NCBI RefSeq assembly: GCF_041248615.1
Contig: NZ_CP158426.1
Length of the DNA: 64,000 nt
Source: Escherichia coli
GTDB lineage: Bacteria; Pseudomonadota; Gammaproteobacteria; Enterobacterales; Enterobacteriaceae
Reading direction: 5' to 3' (one strand)
The position numbers and the translations under genes are program-made. Positions 39,555 through 50,934 of this stretch are shown piece by piece. The notes below the pieces were generated by a model. It did not search any database and was not told the DNA's origin. It saw only the letters and a list, made by a program, of their open reading frames with translations. The first letter of the stretch is position 1; each line of letters opens with the position of its first letter.

Positions 39555-40582
39555 TACGCGGCCTCCCGTTTTTTACCTGACGAAGCGGGTTTAACGGATG
39601 GCGGTGGCATCATAAAGCGGGCATATTTTTGCCGCCGTAGATTACGTTCCAGCGCACAACGCAGGCGTCCATCAAACACCAGCACCGCCAGCAGAACCAG
39701 GCCCGCGATAAAATCATTCCACCATGCCGGAATGCGCAACAGCACCAGTACACTATCGATCTGCGTCAGGAACCATGCGCCGAGTACCGCACCGATGATC
39801 GCGCCGGAACCGCCGAGCAAACTAATGCCGCCCAGCACGCAGGCTGCAATTGCTTTCATCTCCAGCCCGGTACCGGTCTGGTTGGGGATAAAACCAATCT
39901 GCGAAGCAAACACAATCCCCGCCAGTGCCGCCATGCAGCCGTTCAACGAAAATGCCACAATGCGAATGGCTTCCGTACGAACGCCCAGTTGACGAGCGCC
40001 CTGTAAATTATCGCCCGTGGCATAAAAACTGCGTCCAAACGCCGTCTTTGCCAGCAGCCAGGCCATAAATGCCACCAGAATTATCGTCAACCAACCAATC
40101 GCGGAAACGCCAAACAGCAGCGGGGCGGAGAGTTGTTTCAGTTCGGCGGGTAATCCCTCAATCCATTTACCGCCAGTCCACAGCAACATGATGCCTCTGT
40201 ACAACCCTAACGTGCCAAGGGTGGCGACAATGGCAGGGATCTTTAGCCACGCGACCAGGACACCGTTAAAAAATCCCGCGAGCAAACCAAGCAGTAAAGT
40301 CGCGACACAAGCAACAGGTAGTGAATACCCCGCGTTCAGTAACATCCCCAATAGCACCGCGCACATTCCGGTAATCGAACCTACCGAAACATCGATATTG
40401 CGCGTGAGCATCACCAGCGTCGCGCCCATTGCCAGCAGGATCAGGATTTGCGCGCTGCTATAAACCATGGTCAGCGTTTGCATACTTAAATACTGGCGGT
40501 CGAGAAAACCGGGTAATACAAACAGCAGCACCACCGCCAGCAGTGCCGTGATTTCACGGTTGTTCTGAATAAATTTCAGCAT
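39554..40582 (-). CDS. lsrC: AI-2 ABC transporter permease LsrC
   Basis: 342-aa multi-TM ORF; overlaps the lsrA 3' end by 7 nt. Confidence 0.9.
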
Positions 40583-42111
40583 GACGCCTCCTGACGCTGA
40601 CTATCGCCGAAGGCAACGCGCATAATGGTCTCGACATTAATATCGCGTCCGGTCAGTGCAGAGTGGGCAATTTCGCCCTGATGCATCACATATACGCGAT
40701 CTGCCATCAGTTCGATCTCTTCCAGATCAGAGGAGATAAGCAGCACTGCCACATTCTGTGCGGCGATGCTGCGCAACAGCTGGTAGATATCATTACGGGC
40801 TGAGACATCCACGCCGCGCGTCGGCTCATCGACAATCAATACTTGGGGCGAGGCTTCCAGACATTTGGCAATCAGGATTTTTTGCTGGTTGCCGCCGGAT
40901 AAGGTCCGCGCAGCTTGTTCCGGTTGGTTAAATTTAATATTCAGCGCCCGACGATAACGTTCCAGTGTGGCGTTATCTTTCGCGGTTTTCGCCCAGAATC
41001 CACGAAGGTTATGAGTAAGGGCGCAGACATTCCAGGCCAGCGAAGCATCGAGATTCAGTCCGGATGACTGGCGATCTTCCGGCAGATAAACCAGACCGCG
41101 CAGTAAACGTTCTCCAGTGGATAATTTATTGATCTCTTTACCATTCAGCATAATGCGTCCGCCACGCAAAGTACGCAGACCATAGAGCGTCTCGGCCAGT
41201 TCTGTGCGTCCGGCTCCCACCAGCCCAGCCAGGCCCAGAATTTCTCCGGCATTGAGCGTCAGGCTGACATTCCTGAAACCTTCGCCGGTCAGATTTTCCA
41301 GTGTCAGCACTGGCGTTCCGGCGGCATGTTGTGGGCGGTTGCCAGGTAATTCCAGCCATAATTTTTGGCTGGCAGAGAGCGATTTTTCCCGTAGCGCTGG
41401 CGTAATGGCCTGAATAATGTCGTCGGTAGACAGTTCGCTGGTTTTGCCGCTTAAGGCGATGGTTCCGTCGCGCATCACGCTAATTCGGTCGGCAATCTGG
41501 CGAATTTCCGGCAGCTTATGCGAGATAAAAACAATACCCACGCCAGTAGCAAGCAGCTCCCGCAAGCGAATAAACAAACGTTCGGTTTCGGCGGGAGTAA
41601 GCGAGGCGGTAGGTTCATCGAGGATCAGAATTCGCGAATCGCGCATCAGGCCGCGGAGGATTTCCACCATTTGGCGATCGGCAACATCCAGCGATCCTGC
41701 CAGACTATGCAGATCAAACTGGCAGCCCAGCGCCGCCAGTAAGTTATTCATTTTCTGTATGGAGAGCTGTTTTTTTGCCAGACCAAACAGGATGTTTTCT
41801 TTTATCGACAGGCTTGGAAAAAGCAGCGGTTCCTGGGGAACGAGATAAATGCCCAACTGATGAGCATGAACTGGCGTTAATCTGGTGTAGTTGTTGCCCC
41901 CAATCTCCAGCGTACCGCTATCAGCAGGGGTAATACCGGCAATAATCTTCATTAACGTCGATTTACCGGCCCCATTGCCGCCGAGCAGGGCGTGGACCTC
42001 CCCCTGATGCAACGTAAAATCGATGCCTTTCAGGACATTAACCCCTGAATACTGTTTATAAACCGAGCGGGCGCAAAGTAGCGGTAACGCGCGGGTATCA
42101 CTCGTTTGCAT
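40576..42111 (-). CDS. lsrA: AI-2 ABC transporter ATP-binding protein LsrA (duplicated ABC domains)
   Basis: 511-aa ORF with two Walker A motifs (GGNGAGKST and GLVGAGRTE). Confidence 0.9.
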
Positions 42112-42359
42112 ATTTCCCCCGTTCAGTTTTGCAGGTGAGTTTTGAACAAATGTATTTCTGCTTTTAATTTGTTCATAACCTTAGGTGGACATTGCACATA
42201 TTTCCGACGAATAGATCACAATTTATGCTATTTTGATTTTCACGGTTGCGTTTGTTCATGCTCGTAGAGTCAAACTGCGGTTGCCATCACAGATATAAAT
42301 GCGCAATAACTGAACAATTGCATTAAAGATTTAAGTATGTTCAAAGTGAAGAATGAATT
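42112..42359. promoter_or_regulatory. divergent lsrA/lsrR control region; inverted repeat TGAACAAAT-N15-ATTTGTTCA at about 42143..42175 and further TGAACA-like half sites
   Basis: repeats read directly; LsrR and cAMP-CRP control is established for this locus but individual sites here are not verified. Confidence 0.45.
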
Positions 42360-43313
42360 ATGACAATCAACGATTCGGTAATTTCAGAACAGGGAATGTG
42401 TGAAGAAGAACAGGTCGCGCGGATTGCGTGGTTTTACTACCACGACGGGCTGACCCAGAGTGAGATCAGCGATCGTCTCGGCCTGACCCGTTTGAAAGTG
42501 TCGCGATTACTGGAGAAAGGGCATCAATCCGGCATTATTCGCGTACAGATTAATTCTCGCTTTGAAGGCTGTCTGGAATATGAAACACAATTACGTCGTC
42601 AGTTTTCGCTGCAACATGTCCGGGTGATCCCAGGGCTTGCGGATGCTGATGTCGGCGGGCGACTAGGGATAGGCGCGGCGCATATGTTGATGAGTTTACT
42701 TCAACCACAACAGATGCTGGCGATTGGTTTTGGCGAGGCAACCATGAATACGCTGCAACGCTTAAGTGGTTTTATTTCGTCGCAGCAAATTCGCCTGGTC
42801 ACGCTCTCCGGTGGCGTCGGTTCTTATATGACGGGTATCGGACAGCTTAACGCGGCGTGCAGTGTGAATATTATTCCGGCTCCGCTGCGGGCATCCTCCG
42901 CTGACATTGCCCGTACGCTAAAAAATGAAAATTGCGTCAAAGATGTTCTGTTAGCCGCGCAAGCAGCGGATGTGGCGATTGTCGGCATTGGGGCCGTGAG
43001 TCAACAAGACGACGCGACGATCATTCGCTCCGGTTATATCAGCCAGGGCGAACAGTTAATGATTGGCCGAAAAGGGGCGGTTGGCGACATCTTAGGCTAC
43101 TTTTTTGATGCAAAAGGTGACGTTGTCACGGATATCAAAATACATAACGAACTGATTGGCTTACCTTTAAGCGCGCTGAAGACCATTCCCGTCCGGGTTG
43201 GCGTAGCAGGGGGAGAAAATAAAGCCGAAGCCATTGCCTCTGCAATGAAAGGCGGTTATATCAACGCACTGGTTACCGATCAGGACACAGCAGCGGCGAT
43301 TTTAAGTAGTTAA
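42360..43313 (+). CDS. lsrR: transcriptional repressor LsrR (SorC family)
   Basis: 317-aa ORF recognised as LsrR. Confidence 0.9.
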
Positions 43314-43391: not shown

Positions 43392-44984
43392 ATGGCTCGA
43401 CTCTTTACCCCTTCAGAATCAAAGTATTACCTGATGGCGCTGGATGCAGGTACCGGAAGTATTCGGGCTGTGATATTCGACCTGGAAGGCAATCAAATAG
43501 CCGTGGGACAGGCGGAGTGGCGGCACCTGGCAGTACCGGACGTTCCTGGTTCTATGGAATTTGATCTCAACAAAAACTGGCAACTGGCGTGTGAGTGTAT
43601 GCGCCAGGCGCTGCACAACGCCGGCATAGCCCCGGAGTATATCGCTGCCGTTTCGGCATGTTCGATGCGTGAAGGCATTGTTTTATATAACAATGATGGA
43701 ACACCGATCTGGGCCTGCGCCAATGTGGATGCCAGAGCGGCGCGCGAAGTTAGCGAACTTAAAGAACTGCACAACAATACCTTTGAAAACGAAGTTTATC
43801 GCGCCACCGGACAAACGCTGGCTTTAAGCGCTATTCCCAGATTACTTTGGCTGGCGCACCATCGTTCTGATATCTACCGACAGGCGTCGACCATCACCAT
43901 GATCAGCGACTGGCTGGCCTATATGCTCAGCGGCGAACTGGCGGTGGATCCCTCTAACGCTGGCACCACGGGACTTCTTGATCTAACCACCCGTGACTGG
44001 AAACCTGCATTGCTGGATATGGCCGGACTGCGGGCCGATATTCTTTCTCCTGTCAAAGAAACCGGCACATTGCTGGGCGTGGTAAGTTCACAAGCGGCGG
44101 AACTCTGCGGTCTGAAGGCGGGCACTCCGGTGGTCGTTGGAGGAGGCGACGTGCAACTTGGTTGCCTTGGGTTAGGCGTTGTCCGTCCGGCACAAACCGC
44201 TGTTCTTGGCGGCACATTCTGGCAGCAAGTTGTAAACTTAGCCGCGCCGGTGACAGACCCAGAAATGAACGTGCGCGTTAATCCTCATGTTATTCCTGGC
44301 ATGGTACAAGCTGAATCTATAAGCTTTTTTACCGGACTCACCATGCGCTGGTTCCGCGATGCTTTCTGTGCCGAAGAAAAACTGATTGCCGAACGTTTAG
44401 GCATCGACACCTATACGCTGCTTGAAGAGATGGCAAGTCGGGTGCCGCCTGGGTCGTGGGGCGTAATGCCGATATTCTCCGACAGAATGCGCTTTAAAAC
44501 CTGGTATCACGCTGCGCCTTCCTTTATTAATTTGTCTATTGATCCGGATAAATGTAACAAAGCGACATTGTTCCGTGCGCTGGAAGAAAATGCGGCGATA
44601 GTATCAGCGTGTAACTTGCAGCAAATCGCTGATTTCTCGAATATTCATCCTTCATCGTTAGTCTTTGCAGGCGGAGGTTCAAAAGGGAAATTATGGAGTC
44701 AAATTCTCGCTGATGTCTCGGGATTACCCGTCAATATTCCGGTGGTCAAAGAAGCCACTGCATTAGGATGTGCCATTGCAGCTGGCGTCGGTGCCGGAAT
44801 TTTTTCATCAATGGCAGAAACCGGAGAACGCCTGGTTCGCTGGGAACGGACGCACACACCAGACCCGGAAAAGCATGAACTTTATCAGGATTCACGCGAT
44901 AAGTGGCAGGCAGTTTATCAGGATCAGCTGGGGCTGGTTGATCACGGGCTGACGACGTCGTTATGGAAAGCGCCTGGGTTATAG
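43392..44984 (+). CDS. lsrK: autoinducer-2 kinase LsrK (FGGY carbohydrate kinase family)
   Basis: 530-aa ORF recognised as LsrK. Confidence 0.9.
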
Positions 44985-45513: not shown

Positions 45514-48500
45514 ATGAATAGAATCTATCGCGTGATATGGAATTGCACCCTACAGGCATTTCAGGTCTGCTCGGAATTAACTCGCAGGGTAGGTAAAACA
45601 TCGACGGTTAATTTGCGTAAATCCTCTGGGCTGACAACGAAATTCAGTAGATTGACGCTGGGTGTTTTGCTGGCACTAAGCGGTTCAGCGTCTGGTGCGA
45701 GTCTGGAAGTTGATAATGATCAGATTACCAATATTGATACTGATGTTGCTTATGATGCCTACCTGGTTGGCTGGTATGGCACTGGAGTGCTTAATATTTT
45801 GGCTGGCGGTAATGCCTCCTTAACCACTATTACTACCAGCGTCATTGGTGGTAATGAGAACTCGAAGGGCACCGTTAATGTTTTGGGTGGCACCTGGCGA
45901 TTGTATGATAGCGGAAATAATGCAAGGCCTTTAAATGTGGGCCAATCCGGAACGGGGATGCTGAATATTAAACAGAAGGGGCACGTTGATGGAGGCTATT
46001 TAAGATTAGGTACTCAAGCTGTAGGCGTCGGGATGGTTAATGTTGAGGGAGAGGACTCGGTTCTGACGACGGAGTTATTCGAAATAGGTAGCTATGGCAC
46101 AGGTTCATTAAATATTACGGATAAGGCTTATGTCACGAGTTCAATCGTCGCCATTTTAGGCTATCAGACGGGCAGTAATGGCCAGGTTGTCGTTGAAAAG
46201 GGCGGTGAGTGGCTAATAAAAAATAACGATTCCTCAATTGAATTTCAAATTGGTAATCAAGGAACTGGGGAAGCGACTATTCGCGAGGGTGGGCTGATTA
46301 CGGCTGAAAATACGATTATCGGTGGCAATGCCACCGGTATCGGAACCCTGAATGTGCAGGATCAAGACTCTGTCATCACGGTACGCAGACTCTATAATGG
46401 ATATTTCGGTAATGGCACAGTCAATATTTCCAATAATGGACTGATTAATAATAAAGAATATTCATTGGTGGGCGTTCAGGACGGTTCCCACGGTGTCGTC
46501 AACGTGACTGATAAAGGGCATTGGAATTTCCTCGGAACGGGCGAAGCTTTCCGCTATATCTATATCGGTGATGCTGGCGATGGTGAACTTAATGTCTCGA
46601 GTGAAGGCAAAGTAGATTCGGGAATTATCACTGCGGGGATGAAAGAAACAGGCACAGGCAACATTACTGTTAAGGATAAGAACTCCGTTATCACTAATCT
46701 CGGAACTAATCTTGGTTATGACGGCCACGGCGAAATGAATATCAGTAATGAGGGGCTTGTTGTCAGCAACGGAGGAAGTTCACTCGGTTATGGAGAAACC
46801 GGCGTCGGGAAGGTTAGCATCACCACGGGGGGGATGTGGGAGGTCAATAAGAATGTCTATACCACCATTGGTGTTGCGGGCGTCGGAAACCTCAATATTA
46901 GCGATGGCGGTAAGTTTGTATCGCAAAATATTACTTTTTTGGGCGATAAAGCAAGCGGTATCGGCACACTGAACCTGATGGATGCGACATCATCGTTCGA
47001 TACTGTAGGTATCAATGTCGGTAATTTTGGTAGCGGCATCGTAAATGTCAGTAATGGTGCCACCCTTAATTCAACGGGCTATGGATTTATCGGAGGAAAT
47101 GCCTCCGGTAAGGGGATAGTTAATATTTCAACGGATAGTCTCTGGAATTTAAAAACGTCATCTACTAACGCCCAATTGCTACAGGTCGGTGTATTAGGCG
47201 CGGGTGAACTGAATATTACCACCGGAGGTATAGTTAAAGCGCGTGATACACAAATAGCTCTCAATGACAAAAGTAAGGGCGACGTGCGGGTGGATGGGCA
47301 GAACTCTCTTCTTGAAGCATTCAATATGAACGTAGGGACGACAGGCACGGGTACGTTAACCCTGACGAATAACGGTACGCTGAATGTCGAAGGTGGAGAG
47401 GTTTACTTAGGTGTTTTTGAGCCTGCTGTAGGAACGCTAAACATTGGTGCTGCTCACGGTGAGGCGGCGGTAGATGCCGGGTTTATCACCAACGCGACGA
47501 AAGTAGAGTTTGGCTCTGGCGAAGGTGTTTTTGTCTTTAATCATACTAATAACAGTGATGCCGGCTACCAGGTCTATATGCTGATTACAGGTGACGATAA
47601 AGACGGAAAAGTGATCCATGATGCAGGCCATACGGTGTTCAATGCAGGGAATACTTATAGCGGTAAAACGTTGGTCAATGACGGCCTCCTGACCATTGCG
47701 TCTCATACGGCAGATGGGGTAACGGGCATGGGTTCGAGTGAAGTAACCATTGCAAACCCCGGTACGCTCGACATTCTCGCATCAACGAACAGTGCAGGAG
47801 ATTACACGCTGACCAATGCGCTCAAAGGCGATGGCTTGATGCGAGTGCAGCTGTCATCCTCCGACAAAATGTTTGGCTTTACCCATGCAACAGGAACTGA
47901 ATTCGCCGGTGTTGCCCAACTGAAAGACAGTACCTTCGCACTGGAACGCGACAACACCGCTGCGCTTACTCACGCGATGCTGCAGTCTGACAGTGAAAAT
48001 ACCACATCGGTAAAAGTGGGAGAGCAATCCATTGGTGGACTAGCCATGAATGGCGGTACGCTCACTTTCGATACGGATATACCTGCTGCGACGCTTGCGG
48101 AGGGATATATCAGCGTCGATACACTGGTTGTCGGCGCGGGTGACTACACCTGGAAAGGCCGTAACTATCAGGTAAACGGGACGGGCGACGTGCTTATCGA
48201 CGTGCCTAAACCGTGGAATGATCCCATGGCGAATAACCCTCTGACGACGCTCAATTTGCTGGAACACGATGATAGCCATGTCGGCGTTCAACTGGTGAAG
48301 GCGCAAACGGTTATTGGGTCGGGTGGCTCATTAACGTTACGTGATTTACAGGGCGACGAGGTGGAAGCGGACAAAACGTTACATATTGCACAAAACGGGA
48401 CAGTGGTCGCCGAGGGTGATTATGGATTCCGCCTCACGACCGCACCTGGTGATGGTTTGTATGTTAACTATGGGCTGAAAGCGCTGAACATCCATGGTGG

Positions 48501-50934
48501 GCAAAAGCTGACGTTAGCCGAACATGGCGGAGCCTATGGCGCAACGGCCGATATGTCGGCAAAAATCGGTGGTGAAGGGGATCTGGCAATCAATACGGTG
48601 CGACAGGTTTCGCTTTCTAACGGTCAGAACGACTATCAGGGGGCAACCTACGTTCAGATGGGGACATTACGTACCGATGCGGATGGCGCGCTGGGCAATA
48701 CTCGGGAACTGAACATCAGCAACGCGGCCATCGTCGATCTTAATGGATCGGCCCAGACGGTAGAGACATTCACCGGGCTGATGGGTTCGACTGTTTTGTT
48801 TAAAGAGGGGTCGCTGACGGTAAATAAAGGTGGGATCAGTCAGGGTGAACTGACAGGTGGCGGAAACCTGAATGTTACAGGGGGAACGCTGGCTATCGAG
48901 GGGCTTAATGCACGCTACAATGCGTTAACCAGCGTTAGCCCAAATGCGGAAGTCAGCCTCGATAATACGCAGGGGTTAGGCAGAGGAAATATTGCCAATG
49001 ACGGTCTGTTAACGCTAAAAAACGTGACTGGCGAACTGCGCAATAGCATAAGCGGGAAGGGTATCGTGAGCGCAACCGCCAGGACAGATGTAGAGCTGGA
49101 TGGCGATAATAGCCGCTTTGTGGGGCAATTCAACATTGATACAGGCAGCGCGCTCAGCGTCAACGAGCAGAAAAACTTGGGTGATGCTTCCGTTATCAAT
49201 AATGGCCTGCTCACCATCTCCACTGAGCGTAGCTGGGCGATGACGCACAATATCAGCGGTAGCGGTGATGTGACAAAACTGGGTACCGGGATCCTGACTC
49301 TTAACAAAGATTCCGCGGCGTATCAGGGTACGACGGATATCGTGGGTGGTGAAATTGCTTTCGGTTCCGACTCTGCCATTAATATGGCAAGTCAGCACAT
49401 TAATATCCATAACAGCGGTGTGATGTCGGGAAATGTCACCACTGCAGGTGATGTGAACGTTATGCCAGGGGGGACACTGCGTGTCGCTAAAACCACTGTC
49501 GGCGGTAACCTGGAGAATGGTGGCACGGTTCAAATGAACAGCGAAGGGGGGAAACCGGGGAATGTACTGACCGTTAACGGTAACTATACCGGAAACAATG
49601 GCCTGATGACGTTCAACGCGACGCTGGGCGGCGATAATTCGCCCACCGATAAGATGAACGTGAAAGGCGATACCCAAGGGAATACTCGCGTTCGGGTTGA
49701 TAACATTGGCGGCGTCGGTGCACAAACGGTCAACGGTATTGAACTCATTGAGGTCGGCGGTAATTCTGCAGGTAACTTCGCGCTGACCACCGGAACTGTC
49801 GAAGCTGGGGCTTACGTCTACACGCTGGCTAAAGGGAAGGGGAATGACGAGAAAAACTGGTATCTGACCAGTAAATGGGACGGCGTAACGCCAGCGGATA
49901 CACCCGATCCCATCAATAATCCCCCTGTTGTGGATCCGGAAGGCCCATCAGTTTATCGCCCGGAGGCCGGAAGCTATATCAGCAACATTGCCGCAGCCAA
50001 CTCGCTGTTTAGCCATCGCTTACACGACCGTCTGGGTGAGCCGCAGTATACAGATTCACTGCATTCTCAGGGTTCGGCAAGCAGTATGTGGATGCGTCAT
50101 GTCGGAGGGCACGAACGTTCAAGGGCCGGTGACGGTCAGCTAAATACTCAGGCTAACCGCTATGTATTGCAGCTAGGCGGCGATTTGGCGCAGTGGAGTA
50201 GCATCGCGCAGGATCGCTGGCATCTCGGCGTCATGGCAGGCTATGCCAATCAGCACAGTAATACTCAGAGTAATCGTGTGGGTTATAAATCGGATGGGCG
50301 CATCAGCGGGTACAGCGCTGGGATTTACGCGACCTGGTATCAGAACGATGCGAATAAGACCGGCGCTTATGTTGACAGCTGGGCGCTGTATAACTGGTTT
50401 GATAACAGCGTCAGTTCCGATAACCGTTCTGCTGACGACTATGATTCTCGCGGTGTGACGGCCTCTGTTGAGGGTGGGTATACCTTTGAAGCGGGAACAT
50501 TTAGCGGCAGCGAAGGGACGCTGAATACCTGGTACGTCCAGCCACAGGCGCAAATCACCTGGATGGGTGTGAAAGATTCTGACCATACCCGGAAAGACGG
50601 AACACGCATTGAAACGGAAGGCGACGGAAACGTGCAAACGCGACTTGGGGTGAAAACCTACCTGAACAGTCATCACCAGCGTGACAATGGTAAACAGCGT
50701 GAGTTCCAGCCTTACATTGAAGCGAACTGGATCAACAACAGCAAAGTCTACGCCGTGAAGATGAATGGTCAAACCGTAAGCCGTGATGGTGCGCGTAATC
50801 TCGGTGAAGTACGTACCGGGGTTGAGGCGAAAGTAAATAACAACCTTAGCCTGTGGGGGAATGTCGGTGTGCAACTAGGTGATAAAGGCTATAGCGATAC
50901 TCAGGGCATGCTGGGTGTGAAATATAGCTGGTAA
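45514..50934 (+). CDS. type Va (AIDA-I-like) autotransporter adhesin, intact 1806-aa ORF
   Basis: extended signal peptide MNRIYRVIWNCTLQAFQV...; long passenger with repetitive G-T-G-x-L-N-I beta-helix units; C-terminal barrel ending YSW. Confidence 0.8.
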   Translation: MNRIYRVIWNCTLQAFQVCSELTRRVGKTSTVNLRKSSGLTTKFSRLTLGVLLALSGSASGASLEVDNDQITNIDTDVAYDAYLVGWYGTGVLNILAGGNASLTTITTSVIGGNENSKGTVNVLGGTWRLYDSGNNARPLNVGQSGTGMLNIKQKGHVDGGYLRLGTQAVGVGMVNVEGEDSVLTTELFEIGSYGTGSLNITDKAYVTSSIVAILGYQTGSNGQVVVEKGGEWLIKNNDSSIEFQIGNQGTGEATIREGGLITAENTIIGGNATGIGTLNVQDQDSVITVRRLYNGYFGNGTVNISNNGLINNKEYSLVGVQDGSHGVVNVTDKGHWNFLGTGEAFRYIYIGDAGDGELNVSSEGKVDSGIITAGMKETGTGNITVKDKNSVITNLGTNLGYDGHGEMNISNEGLVVSNGGSSLGYGETGVGKVSITTGGMWEVNKNVYTTIGVAGVGNLNISDGGKFVSQNITFLGDKASGIGTLNLMDATSSFDTVGINVGNFGSGIVNVSNGATLNSTGYGFIGGNASGKGIVNISTDSLWNLKTSSTNAQLLQVGVLGAGELNITTGGIVKARDTQIALNDKSKGDVRVDGQNSLLEAFNMNVGTTGTGTLTLTNNGTLNVEGGEVYLGVFEPAVGTLNIGAAHGEAAVDAGFITNATKVEFGSGEGVFVFNHTNNSDAGYQVYMLITGDDKDGKVIHDAGHTVFNAGNTYSGKTLVNDGLLTIASHTADGVTGMGSSEVTIANPGTLDILASTNSAGDYTLTNALKGDGLMRVQLSSSDKMFGFTHATGTEFAGVAQLKDSTFALERDNTAALTHAMLQSDSENTTSVKVGEQSIGGLAMNGGTLTFDTDIPAATLAEGYISVDTLVVGAGDYTWKGRNYQVNGTGDVLIDVPKPWNDPMANNPLTTLNLLEHDDSHVGVQLVKAQTVIGSGGSLTLRDLQGDEVEADKTLHIAQNGTVVAEGDYGFRLTTAPGDGLYVNYGLKALNIHGGQKLTLAEHGGAYGATADMSAKIGGEGDLAINTVRQVSLSNGQNDYQGATYVQMGTLRTDADGALGNTRELNISNAAIVDLNGSAQTVETFTGLMGSTVLFKEGSLTVNKGGISQGELTGGGNLNVTGGTLAIEGLNARYNALTSVSPNAEVSLDNTQGLGRGNIANDGLLTLKNVTGELRNSISGKGIVSATARTDVELDGDNSRFVGQFNIDTGSALSVNEQKNLGDASVINNGLLTISTERSWAMTHNISGSGDVTKLGTGILTLNKDSAAYQGTTDIVGGEIAFGSDSAINMASQHINIHNSGVMSGNVTTAGDVNVMPGGTLRVAKTTVGGNLENGGTVQMNSEGGKPGNVLTVNGNYTGNNGLMTFNATLGGDNSPTDKMNVKGDTQGNTRVRVDNIGGVGAQTVNGIELIEVGGNSAGNFALTTGTVEAGAYVYTLAKGKGNDEKNWYLTSKWDGVTPADTPDPINNPPVVDPEGPSVYRPEAGSYISNIAAANSLFSHRLHDRLGEPQYTDSLHSQGSASSMWMRHVGGHERSRAGDGQLNTQANRYVLQLGGDLAQWSSIAQDRWHLGVMAGYANQHSNTQSNRVGYKSDGRISGYSAGIYATWYQNDANKTGAYVDSWALYNWFDNSVSSDNRSADDYDSRGVTASVEGGYTFEAGTFSGSEGTLNTWYVQPQAQITWMGVKDSDHTRKDGTRIETEGDGNVQTRLGVKTYLNSHHQRDNGKQREFQPYIEANWINNSKVYAVKMNGQTVSRDGARNLGEVRTGVEAKVNNNLSLWGNVGVQLGDKGYSDTQGMLGVKYSW

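Follow-up and report, generated by a model that had tools for sequence, protein, structure and literature searches.

The question raised by the lsrA-lsrR locus of Escherichia coli is how a single repressor, LsrR, reads the 248 bp that separate two divergent genes (positions 42112-42359 of the window, by which we mean the whole 64,000-nucleotide stretch of E. coli DNA analysed). A preliminary description of this region had pointed out a long inverted repeat with arms 15 nt apart and further TGAACA-type elements, considered them plausible LsrR boxes, and suggested that their spacing might inform how the repressor bridges the two promoters. We conclude, with a probability of about 85%, that these 248 bp form the already known regulatory region of the lsr system for AI-2 uptake and that they carry two direct 33-bp LsrR operators, each most likely bound by an LsrR tetramer. 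To judge by its position, the inverted repeat itself is one of the two LsrR sites already known between lsrA and lsrR.

The flanking genes were assigned by their protein families. LsrA matches NCBIfam NF011967 at 954.8 bits (cutoff, 586), and the RefSeq annotation of the identical region agrees; LsrR matches NF011947 at 618.3 bits (cutoff, 486) and is near-identical to the proteins in PDB entries 4L5I and 4GO1. lsrR is followed by lsrK and lsrA by lsrCDBFG, all of them NCBIfam equivalogs scoring far above cutoff. The intergenic region is found at 95-100% identity in 4176 of 5426 complete E. coli genomes, and it agrees with that of K-12 MG1655 in length, gene order, and 244 of 248 bases (98.4%). 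The four differences from K-12 lie at 42278, 42302, 42307, and 42335, the last being position 25 of the operator next to lsrR. The features of the region are collected in Table 1.

Table 1. Genes, operators, CRP sites, and candidate promoter elements of the lsrA-lsrR locus (window coordinates)
Feature	Coordinates	Strand	Sequence or identity	Remarks
lsrA	40576..42111	-	AI-2 ABC transporter ATPase	First gene of lsrACDBFG
lsrA ribosome-binding site	42116..42121	-	CGGGGG	5-10 nt upstream of the lsrA ATG; CCNCCG invariant across genera
Box A	42143..42175		TGAACAAATGTATTTCTGCTTTTAATTTGTTCA = TGAACA-N21-TGTTCA	LsrR operator adjoining lsrA
Candidate lsrA -10	42178..42183	-	TAAGGT	TAnnnT pattern conserved immediately upstream of box A
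CRP site I (candidate)	42202..42223		GATCACA on +, = AATTGTGATCT on the lsrA strand	Centre at intergenic 101.5
Box M relic	42226..42258		TGCTATTTTGATTTTCACGGTTGCGTTTGTTCA	83 bp from box A; right arm TTTGTTCA at 42251-42258
CRP site II	42273..42294		TGCGG-N6-TCACA at 42276-42291	Centre at intergenic 172.5
Box R	42311..42343		TGAACAATTGCATTAAAGATTTAAGTATGTTCA	LsrR operator adjoining lsrR; direct copy of box A
Candidate lsrR -10	42313..42318	+	AACAAT	Invariant; inside the left arm of box R
lsrR	42360..43313	+	SorC/DeoR-family repressor	Binds the boxes
lsrK	43392..44984	+	AI-2 kinase; makes the inducer phospho-AI-2	NCBIfam NF008187, 1001.6 bits

All of the elements singled out in the preliminary description are present where it had put them (TGAACAAAT, ATTTGTTCA, TGAACAATTG, and TTTGTTCA); however, they are not loose half-sites but parts of two full 33-bp operators, boxes A and R, and of the relic of a third, box M. 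The arms of box A are TGAACAAAT (42143-42151) and ATTTGTTCA (42167-42175), with 15 nt between them, and a repeat search extends them to 13 nt at 92% complementarity (42139-42151 and 42167-42179). TGAACAATTG (42311-42320) belongs to box R, where it is paired with a TGTTCA at 42338-42343 that the earlier reader had missed. Boxes A and R are 73% identical, lie in the same orientation with their starts 168 bp apart, and conform to the consensus TGAACAAWTGYRTT-N12-WTGTTCA within the frame TGAACA-N21-TGTTCA. Their plus-orientation scores are well above their minus-orientation scores, so that the boxes are direct copies of an asymmetric unit and not true palindromes; across genera, complementarity of the arms is kept for the outer 6-7 nt only, and the arms of 9-13 nt are local to Escherichia.

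These elements cluster much more densely than chance would allow. Of the 46 TGAACA/TGTTCA hexamers of the 64-kb window, five fall within the 248 bp, where about 0.17-0.18 would be expected (Poisson P, ~1e-6), and the exact pattern TGAACA-N21-TGTTCA occurs twice in the window, at boxes A and R only, against an expectation of ~2e-5 matches in the region from its own base composition. Several short two-copy repeats were also recorded (CATATTTCC, GTGAAGAA, AGAACAGG, and TTGATTTTCA/TGACAATCAA) and were treated as chance. The direct repeat CATATTTCC (42109-42117 and 42197-42205) and the inverted repeat TTGATTTTCA/TGACAATCAA (42233-42242 and 42361-42370) do not form conserved blocks in the cross-genus alignment and are therefore probably fortuitous.

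Footprints of the lsrA-lsrR region were reportedly published by Xue et al. in Cell Research in 2009. The later study of Hauk et al. (2016, NAR; PMC5137460) places the p-lsrR-box between -237 and -197 relative to the lsrA start codon; this interval converts to 42308-42348 and encloses the whole of box R (42311-42343), so that for this box the comparison with a published site bears out the suggested role in LsrR binding. The sequences AACAAT and AAGATTTAA, which are essential for LsrR binding according to Xue et al. 2009 as relayed in PMC5137460, lie inside box R at positions 3-8 and 16-24, respectively. Among the selected error-prone-PCR up-mutations of Hauk et al., most are at -214 to -208 (PMC5137460); these are box R positions 9-15, that is, the inner TG..TT element that is invariant across genera, and the conservation of this element explains why the up-mutations cluster there. 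The published order of features, p-lsrR-box, CRPII, CRPI, p-lsrA-box (Figure 2 legend, PMC5137460), is also the order found here, and CRPI is reported to adjoin TGTGCAAT (PMC5137460), which is located at 42191-42198 on the minus strand; together these leave box A as the sole candidate for the p-lsrA-box. The identification of box R with the published, mutationally defined p-lsrR-box is firm. Box A would be the p-lsrA-box, a positional assignment made from relative order and conservation and not from a base-by-base coordinate match.

The literature consulted on the K-12 region describes the boxes by AACAAT and AAGATTTAA, not as TGAACA-N21-TGTTCA, and mentions no central site. LsrR footprints have also been reported at cys promoters of avian pathogenic E. 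coli (APEC) (PMC13393413, PMC12798060). The motifs given there (NNNTTTTNN--NNNTTTTNN; TCCG, GGAAAA) bear no resemblance to TGAACA-N21-TGTTCA, which counts against our reading of the operator.

Conservation was followed in another 35 lsr loci, drawn from about 20 Enterobacterales genera, whose LsrR proteins are 63-97% identical to that of the window. The divergent lsrA/lsrR arrangement is kept in all 35. Box A is present in every one of them, and both boxes are intact with an invariant N21 in 32 of the 35, so the alignment of relatives that the preliminary description had proposed comes out in favour of LsrR boxes. The length of the N21 spacer is constant although its 21 inner bases diverge. 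An alignment of 16 sequences has as its invariant positions the outer hexamers, TG at box positions 9-10, and TT at 13-14, and further the lsrA ribosome-binding site, GATCAC at 42214-42219, and TGTGG-N6-TCACAG at 42276-42292. The motif co-occurs strictly with lsrR.

The three loci that depart from this pattern do so at box R, which is missing in Photorhabdus (L031) and Morganella (L033) and truncated in L030 but present in all the others. L031 and L033 carry box A and a central box 83 bp apart, and in both, box A gets its highest score when read in the opposite direction. L030, a metagenome contig encoding P0020 and labelled E. coli by one source, has a box A ending in TGTTCT and keeps the left half of box R (TGAACAATTGTTTTCA), the right arm being lost. 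A further locus, that of Buttiauxella sp. A111 (L024), has a 123-bp insertion between the boxes, with the core GTGAATCCCCTGGAGCTTACTCAAGTAAGTGACTGGGGTGAACG, which brings the distance from A to R to 285 bp; this core presumably resembles an ERIC/IRU repeat.

Two cAMP-CRP sites lie between the boxes. The core of CRP site II matches the consensus at 8 of 10 positions here and at 9 of 10 in K-12, and it is conserved across genera; the base at 42278, C in the window and T in K-12, changes its left half from TGTGG to TGCGG and accounts for the weaker match. For CRP site I, only the GTGATC half is strong and invariant across genera (GATCAC, 42214-42219), the other half-site is poor, and the 16-mer falls below the 7-of-10 core threshold; its assignment is accordingly that of a candidate and is partly an inference. 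The CRP sites of this region have been reported to be conserved. A scan of the region with sigma-70 and terminator consensus sequences returned no promoter and no terminator, so the promoter hexamers were placed by conservation and by their distance to the CRP sites. The candidate lsrA -10 rests on the invariant alignment columns T71, A72, A66, and A67; it would put the lsrA start near 42171, so that CRP I would be centred at about -41.5 and box A would span roughly -4 to +29. Likewise, the candidate lsrR -10 would put the lsrR start near 42325; CRP II would then be centred at -41.5, and box R would span roughly -14 to +19. This placement fits reports in the literature that CRP activates and LsrR represses in both directions.

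The same placement bears on a published mutant. Hauk et al. ascribed the up-mutation of TGTGCAAT to TGTACAAT (42191-42198, minus strand) to a putative CytR site (PMC5137460). The mutated sequence contains TACAAT, which agrees with the -10 consensus at 5 of 6 positions, the key A and the final T among them, and a C-to-T mutant nearby yields TGTAAT. A -10 hexamer created or improved upstream of box A would be a simpler account of this mutation than CytR, and it would explain why LsrR control is retained in the mutant.

How LsrR might occupy such a box is suggested by its homologue DeoR. Both are SorC/DeoR regulators sharing an R..VSRLL recognition helix; both have the tetramer as the DNA-binding unit and a phosphosugar effector at the dimer-dimer interface. 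The Bacillus subtilis DeoR operator, ATTGAACAAAATTTCAATTACCAATTTACATATGTTCAA, is bound as a full operator only, neither half being bound, by a preformed tetramer (PMC11229326), and the DNA-binding domains of a DeoR dimer are about one turn apart (Soltysova et al. 2024, NAR; PMC11229326; PDB 8R7Y). The DeoR operator and the LsrR boxes are alike in their outer TGAACA...TGTTCA and in having a strong left and a weak right half. Residues 21-70 of LsrR align with DeoR, and LsrR R44 and R49 fall opposite DeoR R34 and R39, which contact bases; here we infer a 5-residue offset between the alignment and the numbering of the PDB chain. The arms of an LsrR box are 27 bp apart from centre to centre, which is too far for the two HTH units of one dimer, and the two arms must therefore be read by different dimers. 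Searches for inner half-sites, with a partner hexamer after either 2 bp or 4 bp, gave no palindrome that is well conserved, and there was no LsrR-DNA structure among the PDB sequence matches.

The two systems also differ. The DeoR spacer is N24 whereas that of LsrR is N21, so that the LsrR operator is 3 bp shorter; an LsrR box is thus taken to work like the DeoR operator, with a geometry that is not copied directly. In addition, DeoR has a single operator, at -60 to -21, whereas LsrR has two or three copies at a divergent promoter with CRP sites. A more distant parallel is B. subtilis CggR (SorC/CggR), whose tetramer sits on a 45-bp two-half operator along one face of the DNA and is split by its effector; unlike LsrR, it has another DNA-binding domain, G-rich direct repeats, and two dimers that bind cooperatively.

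These comparisons suggest the following mechanism. One LsrR tetramer, a dimer of dimers, would most likely occupy each box, the first dimer reading the well-conserved left half and the second mainly the outer TGTTCA of the right half, and the two weak dimer contacts would sum by avidity. Box A would cover the start of the lsrA transcript, and box R would overlap the lsrR promoter. According to the EcoCyc summary of Wu 2013, LsrR is active as a tetramer, which would be disrupted when AI-2 binds; the binding of LsrR and its release by phospho-AI-2 are likewise taken from the literature. Phospho-AI-2 made by LsrK would thus break the tetramer, and with the avidity lost, both promoters would open, the two cAMP-CRP sites between the boxes, each about 41.5 bp from one candidate start, supplying the activation. 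The suggestion that the N15 spacing reflects a bridge between the promoters finds no support; the 27-bp distance between the arms matches a tetramer operator of the SorC/DeoR type at one site, and because this spacing fits a single tetramer, the long repeat is most likely one operator.

TTTGTTCA, one of the elements noted at the outset, is the right arm of a third, central box that has degenerated in Escherichia. Escherichia keeps only this arm and TG at box positions 1-2 and 9-10, the left arm being TGCTAT, and GTTCA of the right arm is invariant in all 16 aligned sequences. As a full operator, the central box of E. coli was rejected, its score being at background (P, 0.1-0.3). In other genera it was sought with a matrix that took in no other boxes than A and R and excluded those of the genus being scored, and it was found 82-84 bp from box A in 13 lineages (P ≤ 0.012, mostly ≤ 0.005). 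At 83 bp and in the same orientation as A, box M occurs in Citrobacter, Izhakiella, Kluyvera, an uncultured Enterobacteriaceae genome, Superficieibacter, Serratia sp. H1w, Mangrovibacter, and Edwardsiella; in the leave-one-genus-out set, P is ≤ 0.012 in every locus with box M and ≤ 0.002 in all but one. An independent later set gave box M at 82-84 bp, with P ≤ 0.005, in Salmonella, Pantoea ananatis, Serratia fonticola, Brenneria, Photorhabdus, Morganella, and L030. The layout is exact in Salmonella enterica (L029), whose boxes start at intergenic positions 36, 119, and 202, each 83 bp from the next, with scores of 36.6, 24.1, and 39.7 bits in that order; its box M is TGAATAAATGAATTTTTAGATGATAAATGTTCA (intergenic 119-151). 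All three Salmonella boxes are strong, the middle one falling little short of the outer pair. The matrix scan gave no central box in Buttiauxella, Atlantibacter, Enterobacter cancerogenus, or Sodalis. No description of a third LsrR site was found in the accessible part of the literature, and one may already be on record; literature searches for Salmonella ChIP motifs or an entry in RegPrecise returned nothing useful. The phased three-box layout is possibly new, and it would be the sole such point besides the explicit definition of the 33-bp operator.

Could the repeats serve another purpose than LsrR binding? We give almost no credence to the idea that the inverted repeat acts as a nucleic acid structure, either a hairpin in the lsrA leader RNA or a DNA cruciform. 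A start near 42171 would place box A in the transcript, and the leader could then fold into a hairpin (stem, 9 bp; loop, 15 nt; -12.3 kcal/mol); however, this fold is weak (z = -1.8, with 9 of 200 shuffled sequences folding equally well), and the leader has no Rfam match. Beyond the outer 6-7 nt, pairing is not kept across genera (among box A sequences, complementarity falls to 25% at pair 8 and to 7% at pair 10), the arms show no compensatory changes, and the same motif recurs in boxes R and M, which stand in other transcript contexts. Recognition of the TGAACA/TGTTCA elements by a regulator other than LsrR, for instance CRP or CytR, is also very unlikely. The right arms are weakly CRP-like, matching 7 of 10 core positions at 42162-42177 and 42330-42345, but better and separately conserved CRP sites exist between the boxes. 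The sequence ATTGCATT in box R, which we take as a point for CytR, matches 7 of 8 positions of the CytR half-site GTTGCATT. This half-site is quoted in Hauk 2016 (PMC5137460); the CytR-like sequence is not conserved, however, the TTGCATT of box R being TTGTGTT in most genera. The strict association of the motif with lsrR, its match to the half-site of the homologous DeoR together with the conservation of the DNA-contacting residues in LsrR, and the published mutational data that tie box R to LsrR (PMC5137460) all argue against a reader other than LsrR.

An alternative that keeps LsrR but changes its arrangement has one assembly holding boxes A and R, and M where present, with the DNA looped over 83 or 168 bp, either by giving one dimer of a tetramer to each box or by contacts between tetramers on separate boxes. 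Mutations in box R raised expression in the lsrA direction in 12 of 14 selected clones (PMC5137460), and box R is about 140 bp upstream of the candidate lsrA start; the effect could, however, stem from de-repression of the divergent lsrR promoter. The spacings are close to whole helical turns at 10.5 bp per turn (168 bp, 16.0 turns; 83 bp, 7.9 turns; also 85 bp), the A-to-M distance is 82-84 bp in every locus carrying M, and insertions or deletions between the boxes are nearly absent across genera, although column identity averages only 69%. On the other hand, loci without M have A-to-R distances of 163, 165, 167, or 168 bp, a spread of half a helical turn, one Buttiauxella strain tolerates the 123-bp insertion, and Photorhabdus and Morganella manage without box R. 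The DeoR crystal, in which a single tetramer holds two separate half-operator duplexes, offers a precedent for sharing, but in solution DeoR does not bind half-operators (PMC11229326). Moreover, a DeoR-type tetramer would spend all four of its DNA-binding domains on a single box, and the fixed N21 and the retention of both arms in every box would be unneeded if each box took one dimer only. No paper on looping by LsrR was found in a literature search. We regard a shared assembly as unlikely and prefer one tetramer per box.

The lac O1-CAP-O3 region has two operators about 8-9 turns apart with a CRP site between them, and there the bend introduced by CRP favours the repression loop. The lsr region resembles it in having repressor operators about 8-9 turns apart with a CRP site in between; it is unlike lac in that the LacI tetramer gives one dimer to each operator, whereas LsrR probably commits four domains to one 33-bp box. 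A tentative proposal, which we consider rather less than an even bet, is an ancestral A-M-R array with steps of 83 bp (about 8 turns) and a CRP site in each interval, in which LsrR tetramers on the three boxes, aided by the bends of CRP, would assemble into a looped or stacked repression complex. With its start only 3 bp away from CRP I, box M could also hinder the activator. If this proposal is right, the array was simplified in different ways, to a half-site M in Escherichia, by loss of R in Photorhabdus and Morganella, and by loss of M in Buttiauxella, Atlantibacter, Enterobacter cancerogenus, and Sodalis; such lineages should then differ in the sharpness or the threshold of the AI-2 switch.

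For the window itself little depends on these assignments, the region being a well-studied promoter that has footprinted LsrR and CRP sites and is used in synthetic biology. The 33-bp TGAACA-N21-TGTTCA with its inner TG..TT is, however, a clearer definition of the operator than the short motifs of the literature. Since the third site is present in Salmonella and many other genera and largely lost in E. coli, the lsr promoters of E. coli and Salmonella may not be interchangeable models, and the operator definition and the third site could aid the engineering or modelling of the lsr switch.

Beyond lsrK, the window carries an intact open reading frame of 1806 codons (45514-50934), an ECSE_1600-family autotransporter according to the annotation of an identical genome, followed by hipBA and then by a SIR2-family gene; we take the K-12 counterpart of this lsrK-adjacent reading frame to be a pseudogene.
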